A DNA stretch of 64,000 nt, from positions 10,354,001 to 10,418,000 of the forward strand of contig CP158635.1 of assembly GCA_050273025.1 (NCBI GenBank), written 5' to 3'. How positions within the stretch are numbered: the stretch's first letter is position 1; every line of letters begins with the position of its first letter. Positions 9,282 to 53,900 of this stretch are shown here, one piece after another. This stretch comes from Cenococcum geophilum (taxonomy: Eukaryota). The position numbers were made by a program, and so were the translations under genes. The notes beneath the pieces are model-generated. The model saw only the letters and a program-made list of their open reading frames with translations, made no database searches and had not been told where the DNA came from.

Positions 9282-10129
9282 GCTCTCTTAAATTTACTAG
9301 GGTATTAGGGGTCTATAGAATGCATACCTTTTTAGCGTATAGGTAGATATACGTTTAGGATTTAGCTATCTTTTTCTTTTCTTCTTTATATTTTTTCCTA
9401 TTTATACTTGTTAATAGTTGGAGGCAGTATATTACTTAACTATACTATTTATTGGCTAGTTATATATATACATATATATCCTAATAACTTTATATTATAT
9501 AGCTTTGACGTAACATAGATATATAGCCTTAATCCCAAAACGTAGAATCCAATATTATTAGATAGAGTTAGTTATATAAGTAAGTTTCCATTAAAAATAA
9601 GATAGAGAAACTGGAACTTTATTATTTTCCCAGATATACTATCTATACAGGATGGTGTAGAAAATAAGGAAAGAAAAGCTAGTAATTTTAAACGGTTTTA
9701 AATAAAGTTCTATACGGGATAGAAAATAATAAAAGTATTATTTTTATAGCCACTTTTCCCGTATAGGAGGATATTAAAAGAGGTATTTAAAAGCTGGATA
9801 TAAAAAGAGAATTTTAGTAGAAATCCCGTATAAAATATTATCTTTTATAAATATATTTTTAAAATGGAACACAAATTCCAGTTTCTATAAGATTTTTTAT
9901 TAAATTATTCTATATGGGATATTATAGGAAATAGGATATAAAATCTAGGTAATTAAATTTTAATATAGGATTAAAATATAGTAGATTATTATATTTATTA
10001 GCTGTTTATACTATATAGATAAAATTAAAAACTGCGCAGGCGAATTGCTGGTGGATTTGGGAATAGGAGAACGGAAGCCGCAGGGCATCGGTTCCTATAC
10101 GGGAGAGGAAAACGTAGCTAGTAGCTCCC

Positions 10130-10900
10130 GTGTCTGGAGGAACGTTAGTTCTAAAAGGAGTTAAATACCGCCCGAGGAAAAATGCCTGGAGGAACGTCAG
10201 TTCCGAAAGGAGTTAAATGCCTAGAGGAACGTTAGTGCCTAGAGGAACGTTAGTTCTGAAAGGAGTTGAATACCGCCCGAGAAAAAATTGGGGTGTGCTC
10301 GTCTTGCCCTCTTATTGGCCAAATCTTTCATCCTCTTATTGGTTAAATCTTTGAGCCCTCTTATTAGTCAAATTTTCTTACCCTCTTATCTGTTAAATCT
10401 TTAAGCCCTCCTATTAGTCAAATCTTTAAGCCCTCTTATCTGTTAAATCTTTAAGCCCTCTTATTTATCAAATCTTTAAGCCCTCTTATCTGTCAAATCT
10501 TTAAGCCCTCTTATTTATCAAATATTTGAGCCCCCCCCACTTATTAGATCTTTAAGCCCTCTCGTTTATCAAATCTTTAAGCCCTCTTATTCGTTAGATC
10601 TTTAAGCCCTCTTATTTATTAAATCTTTAAGCCCTCTTATTAGTTAGCTTTTTACCTCTTTAGGCTAATTAATATATTCTCTTCGGAATTTCTTCGCGCC
10701 GCCAGTATAGTCGGTTAGGAGGTATAGGTAGGAGAGGGGATCCTTAAGTGTATTCGCTTATTAAGATCGGCTTATTATTCGCTTAGGTGTAAACGTCCTA
10801 TCTCCTTTGCAAAGTAGATTATAGCTTTAACCGCGCTAATGTTTAGGAAACGCCATAAAAACAAGGGTGTGGCCAGTGCGGGTCAGCCGCCCTCCCTACT
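10130..10900 (+). repeat. Module 1 arm A: short terminal repeats, 25-bp tandem array, ~250-bp conserved block ending in core site
   Basis: Near-identical to 16520-17162 and 22835-23414. Contains tandem aaatctttaagccctcttat(n5) at ~10320-10645 and ends aagggtgtggccagtgcgggtcagccgccctccctact. Confidence 0.9.
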
Positions 10901-11635
10901 TATAGTGGCGACACCTAGCACTAAATCACTTTAATTATCGTTACATATAAGCTGTAACTATACTTATATAGCTAACTACCTCCATATTCGCACTAGCACT
11001 ATAGTTATAAATTTTAGACCTGTTTTAGACGCTGCTACTATCCCTAAACGTAATATACTATCTACCTATCTAACCTTTACTCTTAATTTGCTAAACCAGC
11101 GATATCTAACATCGGCTTCTATAAAATGTATATCGACTTTACCGTTACATCTTAAGTAGTGTTAATTAACCGTATAAGAATACGTTAAAGAGGTTATATA
11201 AGGCCGAACGGCACTATAAAGTAGTATAAATGCACTTGGGCAGTGTTGAGGGCAGAGTAAGTAGTATAGTTAGGCATATGTGTGTGGGAGTAAGAGTAAT
11301 TGCTAAGGTTTTATCCACAACGTAGGGCGTAATAAGAGGATACAATAATGTATATATAAAAGCCTTTGTAGTGTATATGTAGCGCCAAGCATATTTCTTA
11401 GTAGAGAGGGGCTTATAATTTATCTGCGCCCTACTTTATTTAGCTTTAATACTTTCCTAGCTTATATTAGCGTTATGCGCATTATAGAGAATTAAGTGCT
11501 ATAGCGTTAAGGGCGTAGTAAGCGTCGAGTTTTAGAGGTATTGCTGTCTTAGCTAGGCCTTACCCCGCTAATAAATCCCGCACAGTCCGTAATTGTAAAC
11601 TTACTATAGTGTGATTTAATACTAATTGCTAGAAA

Positions 11636-14600
11636 ATGGCGTTTGTATAGGAACAAGCTCCTTCTTAAATTTATAATAACTTTATAGACGTATATATAGA
11701 GCTTAGCTATCTAATACTAATTCTCTAACAGCAATCCTAAAATTTAGGAGGTATATAACGCTATATAAAAAGAAGAATAACTACTAACAGTAGTCTGCTT
11801 ATTGGTGTAGATAGTAAGTTAACCTATTTAAAATAGACGAGATGCAATAACTGCTAATCGTAGTCTGCTTATTAGTGTAGAGAGTAAGTTAACCTATTTA
11901 AGATGGATGAGATGCGATAACTGCTGACCATAGTCTGCTTATTGGTGTAAAGAGTAAGTTGACCTATTTAAGATAGATAAGATGCGATAACTGCTAACTA
12001 TAGTCTGCTTGTTAATGTAGGATATAAGTTAACCTATTTAAGGTGGATAAGATGCGATAACTGCTAACTATAGCCTACTTATTGGTATAGAGAGTAAGTT
12101 AACCTATTTAAGATGGACGAGATATAATAACTGCTAACCGTAATCTACTTATTAGTATAGAGAGTAAGTTAACCTATTTAAGATAGATAAGATGCAATAA
12201 CTGCTAACCATAGTCTGCTTGTTGGTGTAGTTAATAAGTTAGCCTATTTAAGATGGATGAGATATAATAACTACTAACTATGGTCTACTTATTGGTGTAG
12301 AGAGTAAGTTAACCTATTTAAGATGGATGAGATGCGATAACTACTAACTGTGGTCTACTTGTTGGTGTAGTGGGTAAGTTAACCTATTTAAGATAGACAA
12401 GATGTAATAACTGTTGACCGTGGTCTACTTATTAGTATAGTTAGTAAGTTAACCTATTTAAGATAGATAAGATACAATAACTGCTAACTATGGCCCGCTT
12501 ATTGGTGTAGGATATAAGTTAACCTATTTAAGATGGATAAGATACAATAACTACTAACCGTGGTCTGCTTATTGGTATAGAGAGTAAGTTAACCTATTTA
12601 AGATGGATAAGATATAATAACTGCTAACCGTGGCCTACTTATTAGTATAGTTAGTAAGTTAACCTATTTAAAATGGATGAGATACAATAACTGCTAACTA
12701 TAGTCTGCTTATTAGTGTAAAGAGTAAGTTAACCTATTTAAGATAGATAAGATGCAATAACTGCTAACTATAGTCTACTTATTGGTGTAGAGAGTAAGTT
12801 AACCTATTTAAGATAGACGAGATACAATAACTGCTAACCGTGGTCTGCTTATTGGTGTAGTTAGTAAGTTAACCTATTTAAGATAGATAAGATGTAATAA
12901 CTGCTAACCGTGGTCTGCTTATTGGTGTAGACAGTAAGTTAACCTATTTAAGATAGATAAGATGCGATAACTACTAACCGTGGCCTGCTTATTGGTATAG
13001 AGAGTAAGTTAACCTATTTAAAATGGATAAGATACAATAACTGCTAACTATAACCTGCTTATTGGTATAGAGAGTAAGTTAACCTATTTAAGATAGACGA
13101 GATATAATAACTGCTGACCGTAACCTGCTTATTGGTGTAGGTGGTAAGTTAACCTATTTAAAATGGATAAGATGCAATAACTACTAACTATGGTCTGCTT
13201 ATTGGTGTAGTAGGTAAGTTGACCTATTTAAGATGGATAAGATACAATAACTACTGACCGTGGTCTGCTTATTAGTGTAGAGAGTAAGTTAGCCTATTTA
13301 AGATAGATGAGATGCAATAACTACTAACCGTGGTCTACTTATTAGTGTAGTGGGTAAGTTAACCTATTTAAGATAGACGAGATATAATAACTGCTAACCG
13401 TGGCCTGCTTATTAGTATAGAGAGTAAGTTAACCTATTTAAGATGGATAAGATGCAATAACTGCTAACTATGGTCTGCTTATTGGTGTAGTAGGTAAGTT
13501 GACCTATTTAAGATAGATGAGATGCGATAACTGCTGACTGTGGTTTACTTATTAGTGTAGAGAGTAAGTTAACCTATTTAAGATAGATAAGATATAATAA
13601 CTGCTAACTATAGTCTACTTATTAGTGTAGAGAGTAAGTACTTTCTTTTTAGGTCTTTAATTTCTTTACATATCATGTTGATTTAGGGCATGACTTTAGA
13701 TATCTTAGACGCCTTTTATTAACAATCAGTTTGCTATAAGGTTTTTTAGCAACTAGCCCTAAAGCACATCTTCTAAAAATCCCGTCTCTGCTTAATTGTG
13801 TTTATACTGCGTAGATCTTATATCTTTAGACCACCCTAAAAGTGCCTTTAAATTACGCACTCTAAGAAATAATTGTCTTCTCTATAACCTGCTCCTTAAT
13901 ATAGTCCGGTGTAATTATAGTGGAGATTATTAACAGGTTCCTATAATTAGAGATGATTTAGCCCTTATAGTTACTACAGATAGTCTATATATTATTCGCC
14001 TTTATGCCAATCTAGGTTTGTCTTTACCCTCTTTTAATATATTTAACTATGTCGCTTACTACTTTATATTGGTAAAAGAACCATTAATAGATGGTAGTTA
14101 CGGTATTGAAATTGGACCTCCTATTTTATAAACAATCAATCTCTTCCAAATTTGCAGTGCTTTATACTTCCAGTTACTATATAAATGGCTTTAGGAGTGT
14201 GACCAAAGTCATATATATAACCGGTAAACACAATACTAGCTAACAAGAGTCATTTTTATTAGAGGTCTAGATCCTAACAGATTGATACTTCAGGAGTAAG
14301 CGAGTGGAGAGGACTATTTTATGCTCTCGCACTACTAGGGTAATCTAACGGATAAGGAGAAGAAGCGGTTCTACACCACTCTAAAAAACTACCGTAATTA
14401 AATAAAGGAGGGATTCAGCTATAATGATTTACTAAAGACATTTTAAGATACGGTTTAAGTGACTCGAGAACTTAGTAAAGAGTACCTTTAGATTAATTCT
14501 CTTTGTATAATTTAAGGAAATAAGGAGGATTGGAAAAGAGAAGCTGGGCGCATAGAATAGGTCTTTACCTCTACCTACTATACCATTACCGCGAGTTCGG

Positions 14601-15624
14601 CGCCTAATTGGAGAGATGGCTTCCTTAAGCGGAACTTAAGTCCTTAGTATTTTTAGATCTAAAGTAGCTCCTATAGATAGGTTTATATCTATAATAACAC
14701 ACACGACTATAGTAAAGATATAGATGAAAGCCCCCTTAATAAGAGAGCTTGGGTACTATAAGAGCGAGTGCTGTCCTATAAAACTATCCATTTTTCTGTA
14801 AAATAGACGTATTGGGAGTGTGCGGAAGATATACTTTACAAAAACTTTATAAGGCTATAATGGTAAAGCTAAAGTTAAAGGTCATAGTAGAGTAATATAC
14901 TCTAATATTATATTCTAGCCCACCGGGAAGGGAACATTTTATTCTTAATTTTAATTTTCCTAAACGGCTTACGGCGTTAGGGTACGATTATACGGTTAAC
15001 TTTGTCCAAATTCTTTTTAAGAAGTATTTACAATGCGGTCTTACCAATAAATCCAATAGGGATACTGCGATCTTTAGCTTGGTCAAGCGCATAGAAAGTG
15101 CCTTAGACACTAAAGGAAAATACGGAGTATTTTACTGTTTTTTCTCTAAACTCCTTCTATAGAAATGGTTTAATAGGGAGAATATAGATCCGATTTTTTA
15201 CAATAGTCGAAGGGTGCCATCCTAGTCTTAGATGGCATATAATGGAGGAATTGATTTTATATCGGATTTGACACTTATAGTTCCGCGCTCTAAAGATCTC
15301 GGATTTGACACCAATCGAAAGGCGTTAGTCGTAAAAATTAGATAGTTTAAACATTGTCAAATAGAACAAGAAGAGAAAGAGCATGCTATTTTTGCTAATT
15401 TAGAAAGAGTGGGGTCTTTATAGTTTAATATGGCAACCAAAATTGAGTTTAGGCATTGTGTTGTCGTTAGGATGCGTAATAATCAGGAGGAAAACCCCCA
15501 GAAGACTTACTATATACTAGTTGTCCGAGAAAAACCACTAGAGAAGGAGTATAAAAGACTTAGAGTTGGGAAAGTTAAAGCACGCTATATATTAAAGGAG
15601 AGCGATACTAAAAAGCTTATGTAA
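11636..15624 (+). pseudogene. HET-domain (PF06985-type) gene with 5' tandem intron/microexon array, RIPed
   Basis: YFMLSHY*G, DLLKTF*D, EYL*INSLCII*GNKEDWKREAGRI, PLNKRAWVL*ERVLS at ~14315-14790. Upstream LCLYC...CLL(Y/C)NLLL exon. ORF 15430..15624 is the C-terminus. Start codon tentative. Confidence 0.85.
11751..13686 (+). repeat. Tandem array, period 70 bp: 67-nt GT-AG intron + 3-nt variable microexon (27 microexons)
   Basis: Unit is GTAAGTtaacctatttaagatggatgagatgcgataaCTGCTGACcgtggtctgcttgttggtgTAG + NNN. The triplets start at 11811, 11881 ... 13631. Confidence 0.85.
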
Positions 15625-16073
15625 ATTTGTTATTAGTTTATAAGTTAGTAGTTTTCTTACGAGATATAATATAAGAGTATAAATATTAACGCTCCTAGGT
15701 TGTTAGCTTTAGTAACCCTTAATTAAAACAATATAGAGCTCCTCCTTTACTAATATAAAATTGCTAGTTCTTATACTCCTTAAGTATAGGCAATAGGTAA
15801 GCTTTAATACCTAGTAAGTATTACTAGTTCTTTTTAACAGCGAATAGGGCTCGTATATACCGTTTAATAAAAAGTTACTTATTAAAAGGTTAAGTATATA
15901 GTTGGATATATAAACGGAATATCGTATTTAAGGATAGCGGCAGTATTTAAATAGGTCCTTAAATTTATAGAATAAGACTAGTGTAAATGCGGCGCTAGTT
16001 GGCTTTATAAGCATAGTTATAATTTATATATAACGGTAATTAAAGTAATCTAGAACTAGATGTCGCTGCTATA

Positions 16074-16520
16074 AGTAGGGAGGGCGGCTAACCTGTACCA
16101 GCTATACCCTTATTAAGAGTCTACTTCTTAGGATTAAAGAATAGAGGAAATAGGGGAACTATAGTTAGTGTTGGAATAAATGGTCTTAAGTGTGGTGTTA
16201 TAGCGGTAATACACTACCTCCGCTGCTCGGCGTTTGACTTGGCGCGGTTACTAAGTTAACTAAACTATACCAAAACCCCTAACCTATATCCTCGTCAACG
16301 GAGACATATTAAAGGTATAGGCGCTCCCATAGGCGGGTCTTCTATAGGGATTAGCACTAGCCCTATAACTAGGGCTTTTTAACCCTAGGGCTCTTAATTA
16401 CACCTACACTTTTAAATTTGGCGCCATTGACGTATTTTAAACTAACCCTTTTATTTATAGTCGTCGGAGTAGAGTTTCTTTAGGCTTCGCGAAGCTACCT
16501 TTAGGGGCGATCTTTTATAC
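16074..16520 (+). repeat. Module 1 arm B: inverted core site + ~410-bp conserved block ending in palindrome and ggggcgatctcttgtac
   Basis: Near-identical to 22444-22838 and 28357-28797. Confidence 0.9.
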
Positions 16521-17162
16521 CTAGAGGAACGTAGTTCTAAAAGGTATTTAGTGCCTAGAGGAACGTCAGTTCTAAAAGGGTTAAATACCGCCCGAGGAAA
16601 AATTGGGTTAGGCTCATCTTGCCCTCTTATTAGTCAAATCTTTTCGCCCTTATTGGCTAAATTTTCTCGCCGTCTTATCGGTTAAATCTTCTCGCCCTTT
16701 TATTTATTAAATTTTCTTACCCTCTTATTTGTTAAATCTTCTTCGCTCTTATTTATTAAATCTTCTTACGCTCTTATTTATCGAACCTTCTTACGCTCTT
16801 ATTTATCAAATCTTCTCGCCCTCTTATTCGTCAAATCTTCTCGCCCTCTTATCCGCCAAATCTTCTCGCCCTCTTATTTATTAAATTTTCTCGCCCCTTT
16901 ACTAGTTAGCTTTTTACCTCTTTAGGCTAATTAATATATTCTCTTTAGAATTTCTTCACACCGCTAGTATAGTCGGTTAGGAGGTATAGGTAGGAGAGGG
17001 GATTCTTAAGTATATTCGCTTATTAAGATCGGCTTATTATTTACTTAGGTGTAAATATCTTATCTCCTTTACAAAGTAGATTATAGCTTTAACCGCGCTA
17101 ATATTTAGGAAACGCTATAAAAACAAGGGTATAGCCTTAGCGGGTTAGCCGCCCTCCCTACT
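16520..17162 (+). repeat. Module 2 arm A
   Basis: Homologous to 10130-10900; 25-bp tandem variant aaatcttctcgccctcttat(n5); ends in core site 17125-17162. Confidence 0.9.
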
Positions 17163-17594
17163 AGCGCGGCTAGGTAAAGGTAAGGATAAGGATAAAGGCT
17201 TAGCAAAAGTAAGGGTAAAAGCAAAGGCGAAGGTGAAGACCTATAAGGGTATGGCTAGAGTAGATCGGCACCCTCCCTTCTAGTACAGCCAAAGTTATAG
17301 TAGCACCGCTTAATTTAACTTTTGGTACTAATAAATTCCGCCACTTAAAGCGCGTAGTTTAAGCTACTTAGAATATTATATAGAGTTAATATCCTTACTT
17401 AACAGAGCGACTTAATAGGTTAGCGCCAGCCTAACGCCTCTTACTAGCGTATTTCCCGCCTAAGGGGGAAACTTATGTTTATATAGGTATATATCCCCCT
17501 TAACCCTCTATAAAATAGAGATATAAAGAAAATAATATATATTATATAGAAGGCTATTATAACCTTACTACTACTCTATTATACTATATAAGCT

Positions 17595-20500
17595 TTAACC
17601 CTTCTTTAAATTGGAGAAATAATATACCCCCTAATAAGTGTCCTAATATAATTATTGCATTCTAAATAGCTATATAAGTTGCTTAATAGTTAGGAGGAAG
17701 CTAAAGAATATTCCCCCCCTTTTTCTCTACCTAATTGTTTAACACAAATAGAGTATATAACTGCTCTAAAGAATCTAGCAATGCCTTAAGAGAGGATATA
17801 TTTACTACTCCTCTATCCGTTTTAAGGTATTAACCTAAAGTGGAGAATAAAAGGTTATTAATAACTATACCAATCTTAAGCATCTACAGCGCCACTCCTA
17901 TAACGGCGTCCCAGAGCCTAACTATCTCGTCGCCTAAGCTTAACGCCACTAGCTTACCGTCTAGCAAGAAGGCCACTAACGTAACCGAATTTAAATAGCC
18001 CTTAAATATCTATAGTGTTGCTCCTATAACGGCGTCCTAAAGCCTAACTGTCTTATTATATAAGCTTAACGCTACTAGCTTACCGTTTAGTAAGAAGGCC
18101 ACTAATATAACCTAATCTAAATAGCCCTTAAACGTCTATAGCGCCGCTTCTATAATAGCGTCCTAGAGCCTAACTATCTTATTATGCGAGCTTGACGCTA
18201 CTAGCTTACCATCTAGTAAAAAGGCCACTAACATAACCCAATCTAAATAGCCCTTAAACGTCTATAGCGCCGCTCCTATAACGGCGTCCTAAAGCCTAAC
18301 TATCTCATTACCCAAGCTTAACGCCACTAGCTTACTATCCGGCGAAAAGGCCACTAACGTGACCAAATCTAAATAGCCCTTAAATGTCTATAGCGCCGCT
18401 CTTATAATAGCGTCCTAGAGCCTAACTGTCTTATTATACAAGCTTAATGCTACTAGCTTACCGTCTAGCGAGAAGGCCACTAACATAACCCAATTTAAAT
18501 AGCCCTTAAACGTCTATAGCGCCGCTCCTATAACGGCGTCCTAGAGCCTAACTGTCTTATTATACAAGCTTAACGCTACTAGCTTGCCGTCTAGCAAAAA
18601 GGCCACTAACGTAACTAAATCTAAATGGCCCTTAAACGTCTATAGCGCCGCTCCTATAACGGCGTCCTAAAGCCTAACTATCTTGTTATATAAGCTTAAT
18701 GCCACCAGCTTACCGTCTAGCAAAAAGGCCACTAACGTAACTAAATCTAAATAGCCCTTAAATATCTGCAGCGCCGCTCCTATAATAGCGTCCTAGAGCC
18801 TAACTATCTTATTATACGAGCTTAACGCCACTAGCTTGCCGTTTAGCAAAAAGGCCACTAACGTAACTAAATTTAAATGGCCCTTAAACGTCTATAGCGC
18901 CGCTCCTATAACAGCGTCCTAGAGCCTAACTATCTTATTATACAAGCTTAACGCCACCAGCTTGCCATCTGGCAAAAAGGCTACTAATGTAACTAAATCT
19001 AAATAGCCCTTAAACGTCTGCAGCGCCGCTCCTATAACGGCGTCTTAGAGCCTAACTGTCTTATTATATAAGCTTAACGCCACTAGCTTGCCGTTTAGCG
19101 AGAAGGCCACTAATATAACCTAATCTAAATGGCCCTTAAACGTCTGCAGCGCCGCTCCCGTAATGGCGTCCTAGAGCCTAACTGTCTTATTATACAAGCT
19201 TAACGCCACTAGCTTGCCGTCCGGCGAGAAGGCCACTAACGTAACCCAATTTAAATAGCCCTTAAATGTCTGTAGCGCTGCTCCCGTAACGGCGTCTTAG
19301 AGCCTAACTATCTTATTGCCCAAGCTTAACGCTACCAGCTTACTATTTAGCGAGAAGGCCACTAACGTAACCTAATCTAAATAGCCCTCAAGTGTCTGCA
19401 GCGCCGCGCTTTAATTTACTTACACTTTTGGCTTTATTTGGATCCAAGTAGGGATATACTTCTTAAATCGTCTTTAAACAATACTCTTCTCTAGGGCGAA
19501 GATAAGGGCTAAGCAATATAGCTAGAGGGGTGCCTATTTAATCACTAATCAATTATATAGAATAAATCGCTTCGTATTATAAACAAACGCGTATAGGTTA
19601 GGACTTTTATTAGCCTAGGTATAAATTAGTTAGGATTACCTAGTATACTCTAATAAAGACTTATTAGAATTTAAGCCTCCAAGAATAATATTATAAGAAT
19701 CCCTTTTAAAGTCTTCCCTATCTAGCTAAGGGCCTTAAGCTAGTGAAGTAAATGCTCCTATAGAAACCAATAAACTTAGTCGTTATTATAGAGTTAAGCA
19801 CTACCCCTTTAAAGATGCTGGACCTAGTATAGATATATATATTAAACTTCCGGAGGTATATACTGCTCTAATCGACTACTATTAACCCCTTAAGTAGATA
19901 AGCCTGGAGCGTAAACGCTATAGATATCTCTTCCTAGTTTGCTAGATATAAGCCGTATATAGTATTAGGCTAAGGCTTTATACTATTGTCTCTTATTTAC
20001 CTAAAGGGCTTAATTATAGCATCTCTGCTTATCTAGGAGGAAATCTTAAAACGAGGGATGTAATAGGCGAATAGGAGCTCCCTAGTCCTTTAGTATGTTA
20101 AGTACTAAATGTAAATACTATAATCTAGAATTAATTGACTCCAGGCGAATATTAAGCAGTTTAGTAAGAGCGGTAGCAAAAAGCGGTTCTAATAGGATGG
20201 AAAGAGACCCGATTACCTATCTAAATATCTTAGCTAGCTTATCCTTATTCCGTTGGCCTATAACATTCTTAAATAAGTGCTGTAAGATTTAAGTGTATAT
20301 CTCGTTAAGCTCCTATATTGGCAATGTGTATAGAATATCGTGCTTCTAGTCGTGATAACGGTCTAACCCATTACTAGGAAGGAAGAGGTGGAGAAGATCT
20401 TACGGTAACTATTGGTCGTCGCCCTTTATAAAGCGATATACTGTTACGGCATAGATAAACAAGCTTTTAGCTCTCTGGATTAGAAGATTAATCTTCTTAT

Positions 20501-21471
20501 TACTAGGCCAATTAGTAGCGATATTTTTAAAGTCATCCCTTATCTCCCGGAATTTCACCTTTAAGAAGACTGAAATATCCTAGTTGATAATAGCCTGGGG
20601 TATATTATAGAGGACCAAATTATAATATATAATCCTTGGTATAGCCTAGAAGCTAAGCCGAAGTGGTGTATCTAGTCTGCTAGTAATAAAGATATAAAGC
20701 CGAGTAGTATTATAACCGTTTAGCTCTATTAAAAGTTAAAGGATAGCTCTAATATTATTATCCCCCTTATACTCATCTAACGCATTAACTATAATAATAA
20801 ACGGTAACTGAGGCGGATTGGCCTTAAGCTTTAATATTAGCTAGAGGATAAGCTAAGTCCACTAGTCGCGGAGACCTTAATAGGCAATATCGCGGCATTT
20901 AGCAATAACTTTGCAGATATGGCCTTTGAGAGCCTCTAACTAATATGCTAGCTAGGAGGCAATGCTAGGGAAGAACTTTACAGCATAGCTAACATCTCCA
21001 CCACCTTTTAAGAAGAAGAAGCTTACTCCTAGTCGATTTTCCTCATAGTATTTGCGTGCGATTGTATAGGCGATAGTGGACTTTCCTATACCTGCTAAGC
21101 CGTTCAGCCAGAAGATATACCTTTCGTCTTATATATCTGCCTATGACGTTATCTATTATAGAACGCCGGTGCGCGTGTTAGGGAGGTATAGAGGGTTATA
21201 TTACTTATCGTAGGAGTTAAAGGGCGCTTACTTAGCAGAAGGCAATAGTAAAAAAAGGTCCTCTAAGGAGAGAATAAAGAGTTAATAGCTGTGTTGAGCT
21301 GTCTATATAGGAATATATGCTCTACAATAATAGGTCGTCGTAGATAGTTATAGTAGTATATGATGGAAACTCACCATCTCTGTAATTGATCCCCACAAAT
21401 ACATTTGCTCTATCTATAGCCAATATCCCGCTAATATGCTGGGATATATAATAGTTATTAGTTTAGCTTAT
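17595..21471 (-). pseudogene. NACHT-WD40 NLR-like gene (NWD/HET-E family architecture) with short N-terminal amyloid-like motif, RIPed
   Basis: P-loop IFWLNGLAG(I/T)GKSTIA at ~21070-21118. Walker B IIIVNALDEY at ~20770-20800. Also IFITSRL, LFI(Y)A and LHLFLP/HDFL motifs, then 12 WD40 repeats. The N-terminus is only ~35 aa before LPSA*APFNSY. Confidence 0.92.
17884..19406 (-). repeat. 12 highly similar 126-bp WD40 repeats
   Basis: De-RIP unit GAALQTFEGHSDxVxSVAFSPDGKLVASSSxDKTVRLWDAVT; starts spaced 126 bp apart. Confidence 0.92.
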
Positions 21472-21844
21472 TTCTAGAATTTATACTAGAGAACCCACAG
21501 CAATTGCCGCCAGCGATATAGTAGTTAGAAGACTTTCTAAATCTTATACAAGCCTTACGGTATAGGGGCTTAGGCTCTATATTAGGATCTTAGAGAGAAT
21601 AGCGATATATATCTGTAAGAAGTTATAGGTAAAACGCGAACGGAGGGGTGTTAAAGCTAAGCGCCGCTAAGAATATAGTATTAGCTACACTGTGAATATA
21701 ATCTTAAGCGCCCCTCTGTAAGGATTTACGCATTTGTCCACACAATTAATACCTATACTTATTATTAAAATTGTTTATTATTTATAATGGCTTATATCTC
21801 TACTAACTCTTTTATAGGAGATTACTAACTCTTTATATAGGAGA

Positions 21845-22060
21845 TTAATCGCTCTTACCTTTAAAGAACTTATTAATATCTATATTGTTTACTATTCTAA
21901 CTATCCCCCTACTACCTTGTCCAGCCGCCACTTACTTTATATCTTGCTTAATTCCGCCTTAATCTTCTATATTAAAAAATCCTACTAGTAGGTTATCTTT
22001 ATCTGCTGTTATATTCTCAATCCTCTACCTAGTCCGGTCGTAGTATATCTTTACCACTAT
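21845..22060 (-). pseudogene. Short ORF resembling a two-repeat HET-s-related amyloid prion-forming domain
   Basis: Translates (I/M)VVKIYYDRTR*RIENITADKDNLLVGFFNIED*GGIKQDIK*VAAGQGSRGIVRIVNNIDINKFFKGKSD*: two pseudo-repeats plus an aromatic C-terminal tail, like HELLF/HRAM-type PFDs. Confidence 0.65.
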
Positions 22061-22281
22061 ATCCCTATAATTATTTTATTATTTATAAAATAGATAAAGC
22101 TATAAGCTAGCAAATAAGGCTGCAATTTTATAGCGCCACTTTTTTTATCAACCGCGTAATAGGCTAGTGTCTTATTTTGCGCGGCAGTAAGTATAGGGTA
22201 AAAGGAGCTGTAGTTAGTGTCTTTACCCCTACTAGCGCTCCCGGCGCTTTCTTTAACTCGCTACTATAATAAGGTTACGCT

Positions 22282-22838
22282 AGTAGGGAGGGTGGACGAC
22301 CCGCTCTAGCCACACCTTTATTAAAGTCGCCTTAGCTAGCTAATAATTAGTTAATAAGTTATACGCTACTACCTAGCAATAACCCGAATATTCTATATAG
22401 CTATTTGCGATTAGATAAGCTAAGTCATTATCTTGCCAGCGCTAGCAGGGAGGGCGCTAACCTGCTTAGGCCACCCTCTTATTAAGGGTCTACTTCCTAA
22501 GATTAAAGAATAGAGGAAATAGGGGAACTGTAGTTAGTGTTAAAATAAACAATCTTAAGTATAGTGTTGTGGCGGTAATACACTGCCTCCGCTGCTCGGC
22601 GTTTGGCTTAGCGCGGTTGCTAAGTCAACTAAACTATACCAAAACCCCTAACCTATATCCTTATCAACGGATACATATTAAAGGTATAGGGCTTTTTAAC
22701 CCTAGGGCTCTTAGTCACACCTATACTTTTAAATTTAGCGCTATTGACGTATTTCAGACTAACCCTTTTATTTATAGTCGTCGGAGCAAAGTTCCTTTAG
22801 GCTTCGCGAAGCTACCTCTAGGGGCGATCTCTTGTACC
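22282..22838 (+). repeat. Module 2 right end: core site, 123-bp mini-spacer, second core site, arm B
   Basis: Core sites at 22282-22319 and 22444-22480. Arm B is homologous to 16074-16520 with a ~50-bp internal deletion. Confidence 0.88.
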
Positions 22839-23414
22839 GCGCAAGAAAACTTTAGTAGCCACTCGTCTTGCCCTTTTATTAGCCAAATCTTTCACCCTCT
22901 TATTAGTTAAATCTTTAAGCCCTCTTATCAGTTAAATTTTCTTACCCTCTTATCTATTAAATCTTCAAGCCCTCCTATTAGTCAAATCTTTAAGCCCTCT
23001 TATTTATTAAATCTTTAAGCCCTCTTATTTATTAAATATTTAAGCCCCCCCTACTTATTAGATCTTTAAGCCCTCTCATTTATTAAATCTTTAAGCCCTC
23101 TTATTTATCAGATCTTTAAGCCCTCTTATTTATTAAATCTTTAAGCCCTCTTATTAGTTAGCTTTTTACCTCTTTAGGCTAATTAACATATTCTCTTCGG
23201 AATTTCTTTACGCCGCTAGTATAGTCGGTTAGGAGGTATAGGTAGGAGAGAGGATCCTTAAGTATATTTACTTATTAAGATTGGCTTATTATTCGCTTAG
23301 GTATAAACGTCCTATCTTATTTATAAAGTAGATTATAGCTTTAACCGCGCTAATGTTTAGGAAACGCCACAAAAACAAGGGTATAGCTAGTGCGGGCCGG
23401 CCGCCCTCCCTACT
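22835..23414 (+). repeat. Module 3 arm A
   Basis: Homologous to 10271-10900; core site 23377-23414. Confidence 0.9.
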
Positions 23415-23719
23415 AGCGCAGGCAGTATGCGGATAATTTAGGTTTAATTAGCTAGACAAAAATATTACTAATTATACTACAGTTAAATAGGGCTAAAGGG
23501 AGCTCGGAATACGTAGCTTAAATATAGCTCCGCAGTCTAGAGCATAATTATAGTTACTTACGTTATATAAGGTACGGGGTAGAAATCACCTCCTAGCTTA
23601 TTATCGTAGATTGTATAATCTAACTCAAAACAATAGGCCGCAGGTATACCCAGTCTTATTATCTAACAGTAATTAAAGCTTTTTATACTAAAACAGATGC
23701 TCGACTTTCAACCCTTAAA

Positions 23720-26700
23720 TTATCTTCGAAGTTAGAATATTATCAGGCTCTTAACCTTATCTAAAAGTTCTAGTTCACTAGTAAACCAGTATAGTCTAGC
23801 TTTACCTATTACCTAAAAACCCCCTATAACTAATTATAGGATAACATAGCTGTCGCATCCGAAGACCTTATAGAGTCTGTCTCCTTTTTAACTTTAAGGG
23901 TGCACCCATCCAAGTTCTCCAGTCTAAACGGTCGCGATACGCATACTACTTAATATCGTTATAACCAGAAAGCGCAAATAATTGTCTTACCCTATATTCC
24001 GATCTGTTTTCATTAGCTAAGAAGTCTAGATACTATCCTAAAAATCCATTATCTCCCCAAAGGCAATAAATGACCGATTTACATCAATCCATTCTAACAG
24101 CACCTTAAGTACATTCAGTTTCACAGGCCTAAGAAAGAACTTCTCAAGTTCGGTCTTGTCATTGAAGCTTTAAAGCCCTATAAGATCTGGCGGAAGCTCT
24201 ACGGTTGTTACCAATAGCCTTTAAGTTTTAAGTAGAGTGTTAAATATATAGGTCAAGCGGTTAAAATCGAACGGCACTAAATATGCTCCTTTTCCCGTAG
24301 TTACAACATGCGTCATAACATCGTTCCCGTTAGCAGAAAATGCACTACCTATACTATTAATAGTTCCGAGAATAGCGCTACGGACGGTAAGCGTATTTTT
24401 AAAGAAGCTCGGCTTATCCGTTTACTTAAGAAGGAACCTTAATAAACCCCATTAAATAGGCGCCTAAATCTACTTAAACTCTTACTCTACTAAGGCATTA
24501 TTTAGATCCCTCTAGTCAACCACCTATAAAGGCAGAGAGTTATATAGCCCTTAGCGTAAAGTCCAAAGGTATATTAAGTCGAGTAGGAAACCTTTCTCAA
24601 TTAAAGCTTTTAAGAAATCTATATAGGTTTCCTCAACTAATTAGCTATAGTTTGGTTTAGGGATAAATACGTCACTATTATATATAAGTCCCAGAAGCCC
24701 ATATATCTTATCTTTTAGGTCCATTAACAACGCATAGCAACTGCGGTATAATGCCTCTAGTAATTCAACAGGCTTTATAGCAAGTCTATTAATTCGAAAC
24801 TAAAGTAAGTTCTAAAACCTCGCTTTTAACTCATCACTATTAGTCCTGTTAATACCTACCGTAAAAATAGGGCGCAAAAAATGTTCAAGAGTCTCCTATA
24901 AAAGCTTATAATAACCACAGAATATAGTAATCCTTAATACTGCGGCAAGCTCTTAGATAATCCATACTCGTGTCTAGTACGGTTTTAAGAGTAACTAGAG
25001 GAAAGCACACTAAGCCAAACCCGACTGGACTTAGTAAGCCATAGCAGTATACTTAGCAGACAGAGTTTTAATATCCTCTTTTATTATATCTTATACATCG
25101 CCTAACCAAACAGCCACTTAGTTTGCTTTTTAGAATATTGCGCCCATTCTTCTAACCTAATAACTTCTTTCTTTGTCGTCCTCCTAATTAATATAAAGAG
25201 CATCCACCTAGACACGCTCCACTCTTTCTACTCTTAATCGCCTTAGAGCTAAATAAAGGTTCGCAGTCACAGGGAATCTAAGGTCATTTACAGTGAGGCT
25301 GACTTTATTAGTCAGTTCGCCCTAGTAATATAATAGGGCCGCAAACGGCGGAGCTTTAAATAGAGATATATGGTCAAGCAAACATAATAAGGGCGATATA
25401 TTCTTATCTAACGGGTGTATAGTTAGAAGCCGGATCTATTTAGCTACTTAGTTAAGGTTCTGTCCCTATAGTTGGATAGATAGATATTAGAATTCTTCCC
25501 ACTTAGAGGACGATATAGGTTAGTAGCTGGGTGTTTAGTTCTAGGCTAGATCTATTAAAGAGCCTTAGTTAGCCAATTATCCTCTTTTACCATTACGGTT
25601 TACTTACTCACTATATCCATTAAGTAGCCTTAGTTAGCTAGTCATCCTCTTCTACCATTACGGTTTACTTACAAACTATATCCATTAAAGAGCCTTAGTT
25701 AGCTAGTTATCCTCTTCTACTATTACGGTTTGCTTACAAACTATATCTATTAAAGAGCCTTAGTTAGCCAGTTATCCTCTTCTACTATTACGGTTTACTT
25801 ACTTCCTATATCTATTAAAGAGCCTTAATTAGCCAGTTATCCTCTTCTACTATTACGGTTTACTTACAAACTATATCCATTAAGGAGCCTTAGTTAGCCA
25901 ATCATCCTCTTCTACTATTATAGTTTACTTATAGGCTATATCTATTAAGGAGCCTTAGTTAGCCAGTTATCCTCTTCTACTATTACAGTTCACTTATAAG
26001 CTATATCTATTAAGGAGCCTTAGTTAGCTAGTTATCCTCTTCTACTATTATAGTTTACTTACTTCCTATATCCATTAAGGAGCCTTAGTTAGCTAGTTAT
26101 CCTCTTCTACTATTACGGTTTACTTATAAACTATATCTATTAAGGAACCTTAGTTAGCTAGTTATCCTCTTCTACTATTATAGTTTACTTACTTCCTATA
26201 TCTATTAAGGAGCCTTAGTTAGCCAGTTATCCTCTTCTACTATTATAGTTTACTTATAGGCTATATCCATTAAGGAGCCTTAGTTAGCCAGTTATTATCT
26301 TTTACTATTATAGTTTACTTACAGGCTATATCTATAAAGGAGCCTTAGTTAGCCAGTTATCCTCTTCTACTATTACAGCTTACTTACAAGCTATATCCAT
26401 TAAGGAGCCTTAGTTAGCTAGTTATCCTCTTCTACTATTACAGTTTACTTACTTCCTATATCCATTAAAGAGCCTTAATTAGCCAGTCATCCTCTTCTAC
26501 TATTATAGTTCACTTACAAACTATATCCATTAAAGAGCCTTAGTTAGCCAGTTATCCTCTTTTACTATTACGGTTTACTTACAAACTATATCCATTAAGG
26601 AGCCTTAATTAGCCAATCATCCTCTTCTACTATTATGGTTTACTTATAGGCTATATCTATTAAGGAGCCTTAGTTAGCCAGTTATCCTCTTCTACCATTA

Positions 26701-27920
26701 CAATTCACTTATAAGCTATATCTATTAAGGAACCTTAGTTAGCTAGTTACCCTCTTTTACTATTACGGTTTACTTACTTCCTATATCCATTAAGGAGCCT
26801 TAGTTAGCTAGTTATCCACTTCTACTATTATAGTTTACTTATAGGCTATATCCATCAAGGAGCCTTAATTAGCCAGTCATTCTCTTCTACTATTATAGTT
26901 TACTTACATCCTATATCCATTAAGGAGCCTTAGTTAGCCAGTTATCCTCTTCTACCATTATAGTTTACTTACAAGCTATATCCATTAAGGAGCCTTAGTT
27001 AGCTAGTTATCCTCTTCTATTATTACAGTTTACTTACTTCCTATATCCATTAAAGAGCCTTAATTAGCCAGTTATCCTCTTCTACCATTATAGTTTACTT
27101 ATAAGCTATATCCATTAAGAAGCCTTAGTTAGCCAGTTATCCTCTTCTACTATTACGGTTTACTTACAGGCTATATTTATAAAGGAGCCTTAGTTAGCCA
27201 GTTATCCTCTTCTACTATTACAGTTTACTTACAGGCTATATCTATTAAGGAGCCTTAGTTAGCCAGTTATCCTCTTCTACTATTACAGTTTACTTATAGG
27301 CTATATCTATAAAGGAGCCTTAGTTAGCCAGTTATCCTCTTTTACTATTACGGTTTACTTACAGGCTATATCCATAAAGGAGCCTTAGTTAGCCAGTTAT
27401 TCTCTTCTACCATTATAGTTTACTTACAGGCTATATCTATTAAAGAGCCTTAGTTAGCTAGTTATCCTCTTCTATTATTACGGTTTACTTACTTCCTATA
27501 TCCATAAAAGAGCCTTAGTTAGCCAGTTATCCTCTTCTACTATTACAGTTTACTTACAGGCTATATCCATTAAGGAGCCTTAATTAGCCAGTTATCCTCT
27601 TCTACTATCACAGTTTACTTACTTCCTATATCTATTAAGGAGCCTTAGTTAGCCAGTTATCCTCTTCTACTATTACAGTTCACTTACTTCCTATATCCAT
27701 AAAGGAGCCTTAGTTAGCCAGTTATCCCCTTTTACTATTACAGTTTACTTACTTCCTATATCCATCAAGGAGCTTTAGTTAGCCACTTACTGCCTATATT
27801 TATTAAGGAGCCTTAGCAAGTTATCCTCCCCCTACGGTTTATATACCATCTAGATTATAAAATTATCCTTTTAGCTATTTAACAGTACCTCTAAGGTCCT
27901 AGCTTTCTTACCTTTAACTT
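23720..27920 (-). pseudogene. HET-6-like HET-domain gene with 5' tandem intron/microexon array, RIPed
   Basis: IRLLTIHP, FAALLYY*G, VTANLYLALRRLR, VDALYIN*EDDKERSY*VRRMGAIF*KAN*VAVWLG, PY*TRVWII*ELA and DPKDKIYGLLGL motifs at ~24690-25435. Start tentative. Confidence 0.87.
25546..27846 (-). repeat. Tandem array, period 65 bp: 62-nt GT-AG intron + 3-nt variable microexon (34 regular microexons + 1 preceding a shortened intron)
   Basis: Minus-strand unit is GTAAGTgaaccgtaatggtagaagaggatgactgGCTAACtaaggctccttgatggataTAG + NNN. Triplets lie at + positions 25608, 25673 ... 27753, and 27791. Confidence 0.85.
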
Positions 27921-28195
27921 ATATATAGCTTCCTATACGGCCGTTCCGTCTCAATAGTATATATTATTCAGTTAACCAAAATAAGCTCTTACTAGCCGTA
28001 CGGCCTTACAATCCTAGGAGGTGATTTCTACCCCACACCTTATATAACGTAAGCAACTATAATTATACTCTAGACTGCAAAGCTATATTTAAGCCACGTA
28101 TTCCGAGCTCCCTTTAGCCCCATTTAACTGCAGTATAATTAGCGACATTTTTATCTAGCTGATTTAACCCAAATTATCCGCATACTGCCTACGCT

Positions 28196-28797
28196 AGTAG
28201 GGAGGGCGACTAGCCCGCACCAGCTATACCCTTATTAAAGTCGCCTTAGCTAGCTAATAATTAGTTAATAAGTTGCACGCTGCTACCTAGCGATAACCCG
28301 AATTTCTATACAGTCATTTGCGATTAAACTAGCTTCGTTATTATCTTACTAGCGCTAGCAGGGAGGGCGCCGACCTACTCAGGCTACCCTTTTTATTAAG
28401 GGTTTACTTCCTAGGATTAAAGAATAGAGGAAATAGGAACTGTGGTTAGTGTTAAAATAAACGGTCTTAAGTATAGTATTATAGCAGTAATGCACTACCT
28501 CCGCTGCTCGGCGTTTGGCTTGGCGCAGTTACTAAGTTAACTAAACCGTGCCAAAACCCCTAACCTATATCCTCGTTAACGGATACACATCAAACAGGCG
28601 CTCCCATAGGCGGGTCTTCCATAGGGATTAGCACTAACCCTATAACCAGGGCTTTTCAACCCTAGGGCTCTTAATCACACCTATACTTTTAAATTTAGCG
28701 CCATTAACGTATTTTAAACCAACCCTTTTATTTATAGTCATTAGAGCAGAGTTCTTCCAGGCTTCGCGAAGCCACCTCTAGGGGCGATCTCTTATAC
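28196..28797 (+). repeat. Module 3 right end: core site, 123-bp mini-spacer, second core site, arm B
   Basis: Core sites at 28196-28233 and 28357-28392; spacer homologous to 22320-22443; ends ggcttcgcgaagccacctctaggggcgatctcttatac. Confidence 0.88.
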
Positions 28798-28809
28798 GGG
28801 AATATAAGC

Positions 28810-29110
28810 TATAGGGGATTGGTTCCCATAGGGCGGTAAAACACGTAGGCATTGGCACCCATAGGGGATTCGTTAGCGTAGGGGATTTATTAGCGCAGGG
28901 GATTTGTTAGAGTAGGGGACTAGATCCTATAGGGGATTTATTAGCATAGGGGATTCGTTAGAGTAGGGGACTAGATCCTATAGGGGATTTATTAAAGTAG
29001 GGGACTAGTTCCCATAGGGCGGCGAAATACGTAGGCATTGGCTCCTATAGGGGATTTATTTAAATAGGGGATTGGTTAAAGTAGGGGATTGGTTAGAGTA
29101 GGGGATTAAT
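28810..29110. repeat. Irregular ~16-20-bp tandem repeat (taggggatt...)
   Basis: Many copies of taggggatt(t/g/c)(a/g)ttag; the block cccatagggcgg..aaa.acgtaggcattggc occurs twice. Confidence 0.75.
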
Positions 29111-30019
29111 TCTTTTACGGCCTCTACTTAGGTAGTATAAGGCGGCTTCTAATAGGCTAGAGAGTGGATTACGTATTTTATGGAAATATAAAGCCTATAC
29201 GGGATAGTGGGGTATAGGGACCTGGCGGAAGATTGGGTTATCCGCTTTCCTAGGTTTATTTAGCCTAGGCGACTCGCCCTACGCTGTTTTATATGCGTTT
29301 CGACCTAAGGTGGCCTTAGCCGCCCAAATCTCCGCAAAACTTCACTTGTGCAGTGAAAGAGTAATAAAATATTATTCTATCTACTCTATAAGCACCTTTA
29401 GATCCTTCCTTGCTTTTTAAAGCACCTCCTTTATTTAAGAAGGAAGTTTTTTATCCTTTCCCTTTCGCCTCCCACCGCCTGGAAATACTACCTTCCGCAA
29501 TCTATTGACCCGCTTCGGCCCGGCGGTGCTACTACTTCGGCCCTTTTAGACATAGTATTGAAACTCGGCCAAGAATTAGTTCATTAACTAGTATAATCCG
29601 GCGTAGCGGCGTTGCTGCTTAAAGCTTTATAAACTAAGGCGCTAGCCGGTGGTCTAGAGACATAAAGGGAGGAATGCTAAATATGGAATTAGGAGCCCCT
29701 GGCTGTAGTATCTCTTTATCTTTTCTTAAAATACCTTTATATCCTATGTAGTCGGACTAGCGGCTAGTAATAACGCCCTCTATATTACTCCCTCTTATTT
29801 TCCTGTTAATGTCGCTTACCTTGCCTTCTGAAAGTAAGCCATTTACATATTAACTAGAAGGTAGAAACTCATTATTATAGTTACTTTATTACTAATTTAG
29901 ACAAGATATTAAAGTAGGCTTAGGCTCTCCTTAAGATTTCGACTTATTTTCTATTTATAGAAAGCTAAAACTACTTACCTTACGGGCCGACTAAACTTCT
30001 AAGTTGGGGTAGAACTTCT

Positions 30020-35899: not shown

Positions 35900-36830
35900 T
35901 GCAGTAGGGGGGAAGCTTTAGGTAGAGGCTCGTGCAGAGCTTTCGTAGAGCTTTAGTAGAGCTTTATATAGAGCTTTATATAAAGCTTTATATAGAGCTT
36001 TATATAGAGTTTTGTGTAGAGCTTTGTATAGAGCTTTATATAAAGCTTTATACAGAGCTTCGTGCAAAGCTTTATATAGAGCTTTGTGTAAAGCTTCGTA
36101 TAGAGCTTTATATAGAGCTTTATATAGAGCCTTATACAGAGCTATATATAGGCGTATAGACGTATAGATTGCAGATATGCGGACGTGTAGACATTTATAT
36201 AGGCGTTCGTGTGGGTAACTAATTAATTAATTAATTGTATGGACGTTTATAAAGCCGTTCATACAGGCGTTTAGTTAGTTAATTATATAGACGTTTATAG
36301 AGCCATTTATATAGACGATTATAGAGACTTCCTAGTATATTAGTGCTGCGTATTAGGAGAGTTTTAGAGCTCCGTATTAAGCTTTGAGTAGAGCTTTTAG
36401 TAGAGCTTTAAGTAGAGCTTTAAGCAGAGCCTTAAGTAGAGCTTTTAAGCAGAGCTTTTAAGCAAAGCTCCGTGCAGAGCCTTAAGTAGAGCTTTAAGTA
36501 GAGCGTCGTGTAGAGCTTTAAGTAAAGCGTTATATAGAGCTTCGAGCAGAGCTTTAATAGAGCTTTAAGTAGAGCGTTGTATAGAGCTTTAAGTAGAGCT
36601 TTAAGCAGAGCTTTAAATAGAGCTTCAAGCGGAGTAAAGCTTTAAGTAGAGAGCTTCCCTATATAGACCTTGTATTTAGGCTTGTTTTTAAAGGCCTTAT
36701 AAACGGCTTTATATAGAGCTTTATAGAGCTTTATATAGGCGTTTGTGTAGGCGTTCGTGTAGGCGTTTATATAGGTTTATAGGGACGTTTATAGGGACGT
36801 TTATAGGGGTATTAGGGGCACGGCTAGGCT
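35900..36830. repeat. Low-complexity 11-12-bp tandem repeats (agagctttatat / agagctttaagt)
   Basis: Visible tandem periodicity; may be a degraded repetitive minus-strand ORF beginning MEPSRAP at ~36834. Confidence 0.75.
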
Positions 36831-53748: not shown

Positions 53749-53900
53749 TAATTATACCTAATTAATCTGTTTATATCTTTTCGTAGTAAAGCCCCTAATA
53801 GCTTCTTATTATTTTATAGTTTAGCCTTTTAACTTAGAGTATCTACTTATATATTATCTATACCCTTAGTATACTAAATCTTAAAATAGTATTCTATAAG

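Follow-up and report, generated by a model that had tools for sequence, protein, structure and literature searches.

What places three different immune or cell-death genes between copies of the same flanking sequences, three times in a row? The question is raised by a 64-kb stretch of the Cenococcum geophilum genome (GenBank assembly GCA_050273025.1, contig CP158635.1, forward-strand positions 10,354,001 to 10,418,000; hereafter the window), in which a block of 18.7 kb (window positions 10130-28797) consists of three head-to-tail units, each made of an arm A, a core site of about 38 bp, an interior of about 5 kb, an inverted core and an arm B. A preliminary description of this DNA had proposed a vector with exchangeable cassettes, integron- or shufflon-like in mechanism. 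We give roughly half of our confidence to another reading, in which the block is a trio of two-layer non-autonomous mobile elements that lies head to tail in a high-copy repeat, was inactivated by repeat-induced point mutation (RIP), and received its cassettes at one fixed point of the carrier. The first layer would be a polar carrier whose left (A) and right (B) arms end in outer termini of their own. The second would be a cassette that holds one whole gene of the NOD-like receptor (NLR) or HET type between terminal inverted repeats at least about 55 bp long, with the core outermost. Such cassettes would be non-autonomous inverted-repeat transposons, moved by an enzyme encoded elsewhere and inserted either way round at a single fixed position, with a left-type arm on one side and a right-type arm on the other.

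Units, core sites and the assortment of arms and cargo

Self-BLAST of the window and a four-way alignment bore out the three head-to-tail repeats of arms A and B that had been described, with a unit size of about 6.3 kb from self-BLAST. Matching segments were 10232-10900 with 16548-17162 (78%), 10355-10900 with 22870-23414 (90.7%), 16074-17167 with 22444-23419 (74.8%), 16110-16520 with 28393-28797 (88%), and 22276-22837 with 28190-28797 (80%). Neighbouring units are joined by two nucleotides, AC. Outside their repetitive parts, copies of an arm share 89-93% identity, and six arm comparisons yielded 164 transitions and 5 transversions. Because the copies differ almost exclusively by transitions, they were nearly identical when RIP acted on them.

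RIP leaves copies that differ by C-to-T and G-to-A changes, and is recognized by a TpA/ApT ratio above 0.89 and a (CpA+TpG)/(ApC+GpT) ratio below 1.03. All 32 two-kb bins of the window lie beyond these thresholds (1.38-1.99 and 0.26-0.75, respectively), and the whole window is AT-rich (GC 0.26-0.48). By these measures the window is a RIP-mutated repeat region, a transposon graveyard in an ascomycete-type genome. Its copies are RIP-dead relics and not a working system; their value is that of a clear anatomical example.

A profile hidden Markov model of the core, built from 160 instances, found exactly nine sites in the window and none elsewhere in it (10863+, 16074-, 17125+, 17245+, 22282-, 22444-, 23377+, 28196-, and 28357-), and these point inward around each interior. 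They are the same nine inward-facing sites that had been listed before, although the consensus given with that list recovers two of them when up to three mismatches are allowed (0 expected in 100 shuffles) and an ungapped scan with up to 12 mismatches recovers six. Three of the nine (17245, 22444, 28357) are degenerate. The core is almost free of RIP-prone dinucleotides, and its right half contains neither CpA nor TpG, the preferred contexts of RIP, which explains why the core alone stands out in RIP-degraded DNA. The core had also been taken as the boundary of homology among modules. The modules do share it, but the inverted symmetry continues 150-180 bp into interiors 1 and 3, where 10860-11048 pairs with 15927-16114 and 23374-23596 with 28014-28236.

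The arrangement extends well beyond the window. A degenerate core pattern gave at least 127 matching stretches in public metagenome contigs, and our set of related loci (numbered with L below) comprises 126 metagenome loci totalling 1.05 Mb, a sample biased towards cores. These loci yielded 160 distinct strict core instances, the window's six included, and profile matches numbered 181 in the non-overlapping loci and the window together. With all instances co-oriented, we clustered the 120 bp outside and the 120 bp inside each core. Outer families included O1 (33; head of arm B), O2 (29; A-tail) and O3 (21), with 22 flanks lacking a cluster mate; the inner families were I1 (50, the cassette-1 type), I2 (17), I3 (16), I4 (14, the cassette-3 type) and others. 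Throughout the 1.05 Mb, the core always lies between one outer and one inner family.

Which outer family adjoins a core is independent of the inner family (mutual information 0.164; null 0.195 ± 0.058; p = 0.69, n = 68). Arms of one kind with varied cargo, and cargo of one kind with varied arms, are therefore both general, and at least eight inner families are attached to the A-tail family and at least eight to the B-head family. A search for further cargo types, which the preliminary description had proposed as a check, thus found the same arms flanking at least eight other interior families elsewhere. The A-tail next to cores starts at an identical point (A position 577) in five loci.

Does the core belong to the arms or to the cargo? 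In 104 instances from the five largest inner families, the letters at core positions 7, 11, 15, 20, and 27 are correlated with the inner family (z 4-8). In 100 instances from the five largest outer families, no core position follows the outer family (z about 0). Outer-family linkage begins at position -3, which puts the breakpoint between arm and cargo at -3 to +1. The variable core positions include transversions and sit in both halves of the site. Two loci, L040 and L013, share a 4.2-4.5-kb cassette (90% identity) that is inverted beside the same right-hand neighbour; each of its ends retains its own core variant, and homology ends 2-15 nt outside the cores. Logan contigs that begin to match at the outer edge of the core (8 in X1, 10 in X5, and 15 in X8) carry varied sequence before it, with an agreement of 0.41-0.6; X5 is a run of a second strain that contains 63% of the sequence words. 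Since core variants travel with the interior and not with the arms, the core forms the outermost part of the inverted repeat that terminates the cassette. Since whole-core variants co-segregate with the interior only, exchange does not cross over inside the site, unlike in a shufflon.

Carriers, cargo genes and copies elsewhere

The arms behave as elements with ends of their own. Arm A starts with CTRGAGGAACG, a motif that recurs several times inside the arm, and arm B ends in ...GGGGCGATCTCTTAT, preceded at about 22 nt by a palindrome (GGCTTCGCGAAGCC). L073 has lost this hairpin by deletion. In outline, the termini are CTRGAGG... and ...CTCTTAT for the window arms, TAACGTCC... for the O3 arm, and ...GACTTAA for the O1 arm. 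The 636-bp O3 arm begins TAACGTCCGTCCCTGGG... and was found in 10 loci with nine different outside flanks. The O1 arm ends ...GCAATGACTTAA in L010 and L055, with differing continuations, and in L010 it abuts an O3 arm end to end between two cassettes, forming a module chain as in the window. All nine core pairs with matching inner ends carry exactly one GCCACC-type flank (O2 or O3; about 43% expected by chance), and over all 20 inward-facing pairs such flanks numbered exactly one in 15, two in 1, and none in 4. The polar flank types and the arms' own ends point to a carrier layer with distinct left and right ends, in which cassettes lie in either orientation.

The repeat that received the block, here called H, is also found without it: in L043 and L073 the homologue of 10045-10129 is contiguous with that of the sequence from 28798 on. 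In these same loci arm B also ends against H, at a point about 90-107 bp from the insertion point in the window. Among the 15 of 336 Logan joints listed, one contig in X1 and one in X8 run from 10119 to 28795 across 27 intervening letters. Tandem units of 17 bp (TAGGGGATTTGTTAGCG) occur in H at 28812-29111 and also in 9500-10129, and H has by far the highest summed contig depth in Logan runs. Summed depth is higher for the arms than for the interiors, depth not being a copy number.

The cargo of the three window cassettes had been described as a HET gene on the plus strand, a NACHT-WD40 gene with a "PFD" region on the minus strand, and a HET-6-like gene on the minus strand. The HET, NACHT and WD40 domains and all the strands agree with our results, whereas the genes are not intact: all three are pseudogenes, each readable in a single frame with 7-23 in-frame stops within each domain match, and just three open reading frames (ORFs) of at least 80 aa overlap 8000-31000. 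No family matched the N-terminal "PFD" region of the cassette 2 NLR in the domain search. The WD40 region of that gene (17875-19407) consists of twelve 126-bp repeats.

Nor are the three interiors wholly unrelated, as had been stated. The 70-bp array of interior 1 (26 copies) and the 65-bp array of interior 3 (34 copies) are homologous, lie in opposite orientation, and are each upstream of their HET gene; interiors 1 and 3 are distantly related and lie flipped with respect to the arms. Compared with each other by BLASTP, the two RIP-damaged HET readings gave no match at E 0.01. This 65-70-bp minisatellite, whose period is not a multiple of three, occurs in about a dozen loci (L010, L018, L022, L024, L030, L054, and others); its length varies widely, L053 having 193 bp and L024 and L054 about 5 kb.

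Units 2 and 3 each have a second, degenerate B-side core at a conserved 123-124 bp from the first. In unit 2 a further extra core lies 82 bp from its neighbour on the A side. The core variants of unit 2 pair as 17125 with 22444 and 17245 with 22282. We read this nested pattern as the trace of a miniature family member of about 280 bp, M, that once lay between A and B: cassette 2 would sit inside M, and cassette 3 at its left edge, with the left part of M lost. Unit 1 has no M remnant. The landing point in the window would then probably be inside, or at the edge of, this resident miniature. The tandem trio itself may have arisen by repeated insertion at element ends, or by triplication followed by cassette replacement. 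Coordinates of the units are given in Table 1.

Table 1. Parts of the three-unit block and of its host repeat, in window coordinates (M, putative resident miniature)
Feature	Position	Strand	Details
Host repeat H, left part	9500-10129	.	High-copy; receives the whole block
Arm A copy 1 (left carrier arm)	10130-10862	+	53-bp repeats (x3) 10130-10288; 25-bp array (x13) 10306-10641; A-tail 10706-10862
Core, left end of cassette 1 (outermost 38 bp of its inverted repeat)	10863-10900	+	Consensus, ungapped and profile scans
Cassette 1 interior	10901-16073	+	Inner repeat arms 10901-11048 and 15927-16073; 70-bp array (x26) 11776-13639; RIP-killed HET gene, HET domain 14315-14764
Core, right end of cassette 1	16074-16111	-	Ungapped and profile scans
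Arm B copy 1 (right carrier arm)	16112-16520	+	Palindrome GGCTTCGCGAAGC about 22 nt before arm end
Arm A copy 2	16521-17124	+	Preceded by the 2-nt AC joint
Core and 82-bp putative left remnant of M	17125-17244	+	Core variant pairs with 22444
Cassette 2, own cores 17245-17281 and 22282-22319	17245-22319	-	RIP-killed NLR gene: WD40 17875-19407, NACHT-type NTPase (NPHP3_N) 20676-21125
124-bp putative right remnant of M and degenerate core 22444-22481	22320-22481	-	Like 28234-28394 and L061
Arm B copy 2	22482-22838	+	
Arm A copy 3	22839-23376	+	53-bp repeat part missing
Cassette 3, cores 23377-23414 and 28196-28233	23377-28233	-	Inner repeat arms 23415-23596 and 28014-28195; RIP-killed HET gene, domain 24950-25342; 65-bp array (x34) 25545-27789
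123-bp putative right remnant of M and degenerate core 28357-28394	28234-28394	-	
Arm B copy 3	28395-28797	+	Closes the block
Host repeat H, right part	28798-29400	.	17-bp tandem repeats

Relatives of the window cassettes were found between other flanks. A cassette-1 relative in L010 lies between O3 and O1 arms and is inverted relative to the window, and partial copies occur in L022, L035, L036, L037, L080, and L109. The search for cargo in the opposite orientation, also proposed beforehand, thus turned up cassettes lying both ways round (L040/L013 and L010). A cassette-3 relative of 2.8 kb in L053 lies between O2 and O5 flanks, and its array measures 193 bp in place of 2.2 kb. Gene-less miniature forms of about 720 bp and about 480 bp occur in L040 and L049, respectively. 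The latter (L049:14867-15345) carries a diverged core variant (TACAAGGGGGTAAC...), lies in unique, GC-normal, gene-rich DNA, and has TA on both sides; it is the cleanest insertion-like copy that we found. Back-to-back abutting cores, overlapping or 4 nt apart, occur at L046:479-571 and L057:6311-6404, and each resemble either a pair of adjoining cassettes or a palindrome that has partly collapsed. A 4.4-kb segment between two direct cores is present in L013 and L076 and absent from the paralogous L040.

To survey cargo in the related loci, we scanned 243 ORFs with Pfam (149 of at least 110 aa, and 94 of the 157 shorter ones listed). Proteins that could be recognized on the inner side of cores were for the most part HET or portions of NLRs. 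NLR or HET domains or homology were found in 14 of the 24 inward-facing core pairs more than 1.5 kb apart, the window included; the other 10 had no NLR or HET match. Cargo in L006 consists of a HET gene followed by an NB-ARC-TPR gene. TPR_10 arrays lie on the inner side of cores in L020, L043, L045, L048, L064, and L075, and other cargo includes ankyrin with WD40 (L077), NACHT with WD40 (L015), and PNP_UDP (L071). The long apparent ORFs in L040 and L013 were discarded as antisense readings of TPR repeats. An intact ORF of 986 aa (L073:10718-13675, minus strand) encodes a NACHT (NPHP3_N)-ankyrin protein about 690 bp inside a core and is a candidate for a live gene within a cassette; a second core was not found in the next 5.8 kb. 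Copies of the L073 and L075 type are GC-normal and free of RIP.

Could the same layout arise with nothing mobile at all? Segmental duplication of NLR/HET clusters with a conserved inverted regulatory motif at gene borders, RIP having erased the remainder, would suit the position of cores 300-700 bp from gene ends in the intact loci L006 and L073, and NLR families are indeed large and duplication-prone. It fits poorly with gene-less miniatures, with the same cassette between different flanks, with sharp arm ends followed by nine different flanks, and with flank families that assort independently, and we regard it as highly improbable.

The remainder of the window holds further repeats. Several 12-bp tandem arrays (TAGAGCTTTATA and AGCTTTAAGTAG), partly palindromic to each other, occupy 35946-36805, and a GC-richer array of 21 17-bp units (GCTCGCACGATCACCCA) with a 51/68-bp higher-order period lies at 42485-42887. 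Over about 5 kb (48000-53000) the window shows a strong AT skew of 0.17-0.31, unlike elsewhere. Dispersed direct repeats at 53899-54194 and 59468-59763, and at 62362-63443, are 86-95% identical, fall in the most AT-rich part of the window and are unrelated to the modules. A search of the whole window against Rfam at gathering thresholds gave no matches.

Enzyme, target and competing explanations

Several results weigh against cassette transposition into polar carriers. Among the 243 ORFs from 1.05 Mb of related loci, none encodes a transposase with these ends. No consistent target-site duplication was found at several offsets around the cores. No empty target was found either: in 777 BLAST matches within the core-biased sample, outer-family sequence reached the junction and continued into a core. 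Matching inner ends were found in only 9 of the 20 inward-facing pairs, and 5 of the 20 break the rule of one flank of each type. Finally, occupancy of all three units in the window needs very strong target preference or cassette replacement.

The flanks and junctions were examined further. The two flanks of one cassette repeat each other in inverted and not in direct orientation, over as much as about 17 nt (adjoining the core, the consensus reads ...CGCCACCTYRAY). At -3/-2 the dinucleotide is variable (AA 68, TA 37, GA 28, CA 18), and TA on both sides was seen only at the L049 miniature. Fourteen other places reach the junction, most of them cores with an indel; about four are true exceptions lacking a core, and none is an arm-to-arm joint. 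The empty modules that the preliminary description had suggested looking for were therefore not found in the core-biased 1.05 Mb. An unoccupied palindromic target (GCCACCT..AGGTGGC type) had no matches in the loci or the window.

The only DDE match is a RIP-damaged, frameshifted and truncated relic of a piggyBac-type DDE_Tnp_1_7 gene (L005:10510-11279, plus strand; profile positions 3-229 of 349). Elements resembling piggyBac are uncommon in fungi. We rejected this relic as the transposase of the family: it begins past the point, 174 bp inside the core, where family homology stops, which marks it as a nested insertion. The sequences flanking the cores are not TTAA. A 34-aa tblastn match in the L040 miniature (E 2e-4) was weak and was not relied on. 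The same 243 ORFs contain no Rep/helicase and no tyrosine or serine recombinase domain, and ORFs of at least 80 aa within 8000-31000 contain no recombinase domain.

With no transposase, recombinase, target duplication or empty site found, the integron- or shufflon-like mechanism of the preliminary description is unproven. Its picture of a vector with exchangeable cassettes stands as a description and is general beyond the window; its mechanism gained no support. No recombinase was found among the 243 ORFs, and two features that would define such a system are lacking, since each cassette has two inverted sites and not one, and exchange does not cross over inside the site. These traits, like the gene-less miniatures, are transposon-like. 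A trans-acting site-specific enzyme that swaps and flips cassettes between carriers, with its crossover at the outer edge of the core, much as an integron attC stays with its cassette, is in our view very doubtful. Arm/cargo independence, the precise breakpoint at -3 to +1, and the missing target duplications and empty sites all agree with it, as do the cassette inverted in place between like neighbours and the 4.4-kb direct-core segment that is present in L013 and L076 and absent from L040. Two inverted sites per cassette, on the other hand, would not allow excision of a circle by simple site-specific recombination, the ORFs supply no tyrosine or serine recombinase domain, and the miniatures and solitary copies in unique DNA resemble transposon products. 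The site, taken at about 70 bp, reads as a rough palindrome around an 8-bp centre, but predicted hairpins are no more stable than those of shuffles (six DNA folds, z -1.43 to +0.85), which gives a stable hairpin no support.

A wider version, a dedicated carrier-cassette exchange system in which a trans-acting site-specific enzyme inserts, swaps and flips whole NLR/HET genes at the fixed junction of polar carriers, we consider quite unlikely. If true, it would be a eukaryotic counterpart of integron and shufflon logic, spreading and reshuffling allorecognition and cell-death genes.

The results on ends and targets also bear on a serious rival, which we nevertheless judge unlikely: a single composite polar element, perhaps of the rolling-circle (Helitron-like) kind, that gains new combinations by template switching or recombination at the core boundary. 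Rolling-circle movement would account for the head-to-tail chains in the window and in L010. The absence of target duplications is in keeping with a composite element, as is outer-family sequence that nearly never occurs without a core, and so are the arms' own ends with varied flanks and the pairing of left-type with right-type arms. The palindrome of arm B, about 22 nt from the arm's end, and an inverted match of 7 bp between arm B and the beginning of arm A (CTGGAGG/CCTCCAG) could point the same way, although the match is weak and too short to decide the matter. Together these traits fit the account of fungal Helitron2-type elements in the part of PMC5148889 drawn on here. The defining protein and end motif of such elements were not found, however: the 243 ORFs include no Rep/helicase, and the arm ends are not TC...CTRR. 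Moreover, some cores have unique outer flanks (20 singletons among those listed), the 480-bp miniature lies in unique DNA, and the same cassette inverted beside the same neighbour is not readily made by template switching.

Comparison with known systems

In fungi, the NLR and HET families are very large, have a rapid turnover and lie near transposons. The cassettes would give the movement of such genes a concrete and countable vehicle, present at well over a hundred sites and recombining freely with a few carrier arms, and the core motif is a simple handle for cataloguing them in genomes. If active copies exist, growth of the immune-gene repertoire by cassette mobility becomes directly testable. 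In full-text literature, supplements aside, we found no paper on small inverted-repeat cassettes with whole NLR or HET genes; closest were Starships and an association of NLRs with transposons in Podospora. For Podospora, the part of PMC13449251 consulted presents the link between NLRs and transposons as statistical only and suggests that transposons may move such genes.

Integrons and the R64 shufflon resemble the block in their modular cargo between conserved sites, in combinatorial joining, and in inversion between inverted sites. An integron has IntI next to attI, one attC per cassette and one orientation, whereas here no recombinase was found in the 243 ORFs, each cassette has two inverted cores, and both orientations occur. 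Crossover in a shufflon takes place inside the site, whereas here the whole core stays with the cargo, and the L040/L013 inversion carries both cores. Unlike in either system, the copies here are scattered and include miniature derivatives. Targeted replacement of P elements by gap repair is alike in that a family member is replaced at the same site, in either orientation, by way of shared ends. To our knowledge it is known only from Drosophila experiments, and nothing in the present loci shows excision or repair.

Other comparisons lie within fungi. In the part of PMC5148889 drawn on here, fungal Helitron2-type elements are described as having ends that differ from each other and hairpins; they make no target duplication, occur in tandem, can have several 5' ends and capture genes. 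The present elements resemble that account in their unlike ends, a putative hairpin near the 3' end, the lack of a target duplication, tandems, multiple 5' ends, gene capture, and chimeric combinations of ends; they differ in that no Rep/helicase was found in the 243 ORFs, that their ends depart from published motifs, and that long inverted repeats, which are not part of Helitron descriptions, surround the cargo. The arm ends also lack the 5'-TC and 3'-CTRR of canonical Helitrons. Starships, as portrayed in the portion of PMC9156397 used here, are likewise fungal mobile elements with NLR and HET cargo; they span tens to hundreds of kb and have a DUF3435 tyrosine-recombinase captain at the 5' end, whereas the units here measure about 6.3 kb and contain no such domain.

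Terminal inverted repeats on a discrete unit in different flanks, as in an inverted-repeat (class II) transposon, are found here, whereas a target-site duplication of fixed length is not, nor are the TTAA duplication and the DDE_Tnp_1_7 gene inside the repeats that mark piggyBac. Pack-type transposons, such as the Pack-MULEs of plants, likewise combine shared terminal inverted repeats, varied host-gene cargo and many copies with no transposase of their own. Pack-MULEs have long inverted repeats of the Mutator type, carry gene fragments and make a 9-11-bp target duplication, whereas the present cassettes carry whole NLR or HET genes and have no such duplication. In a further difference from Pack-MULEs, the cassettes are nested in a second layer of polar arms, and the same junction is used repeatedly.

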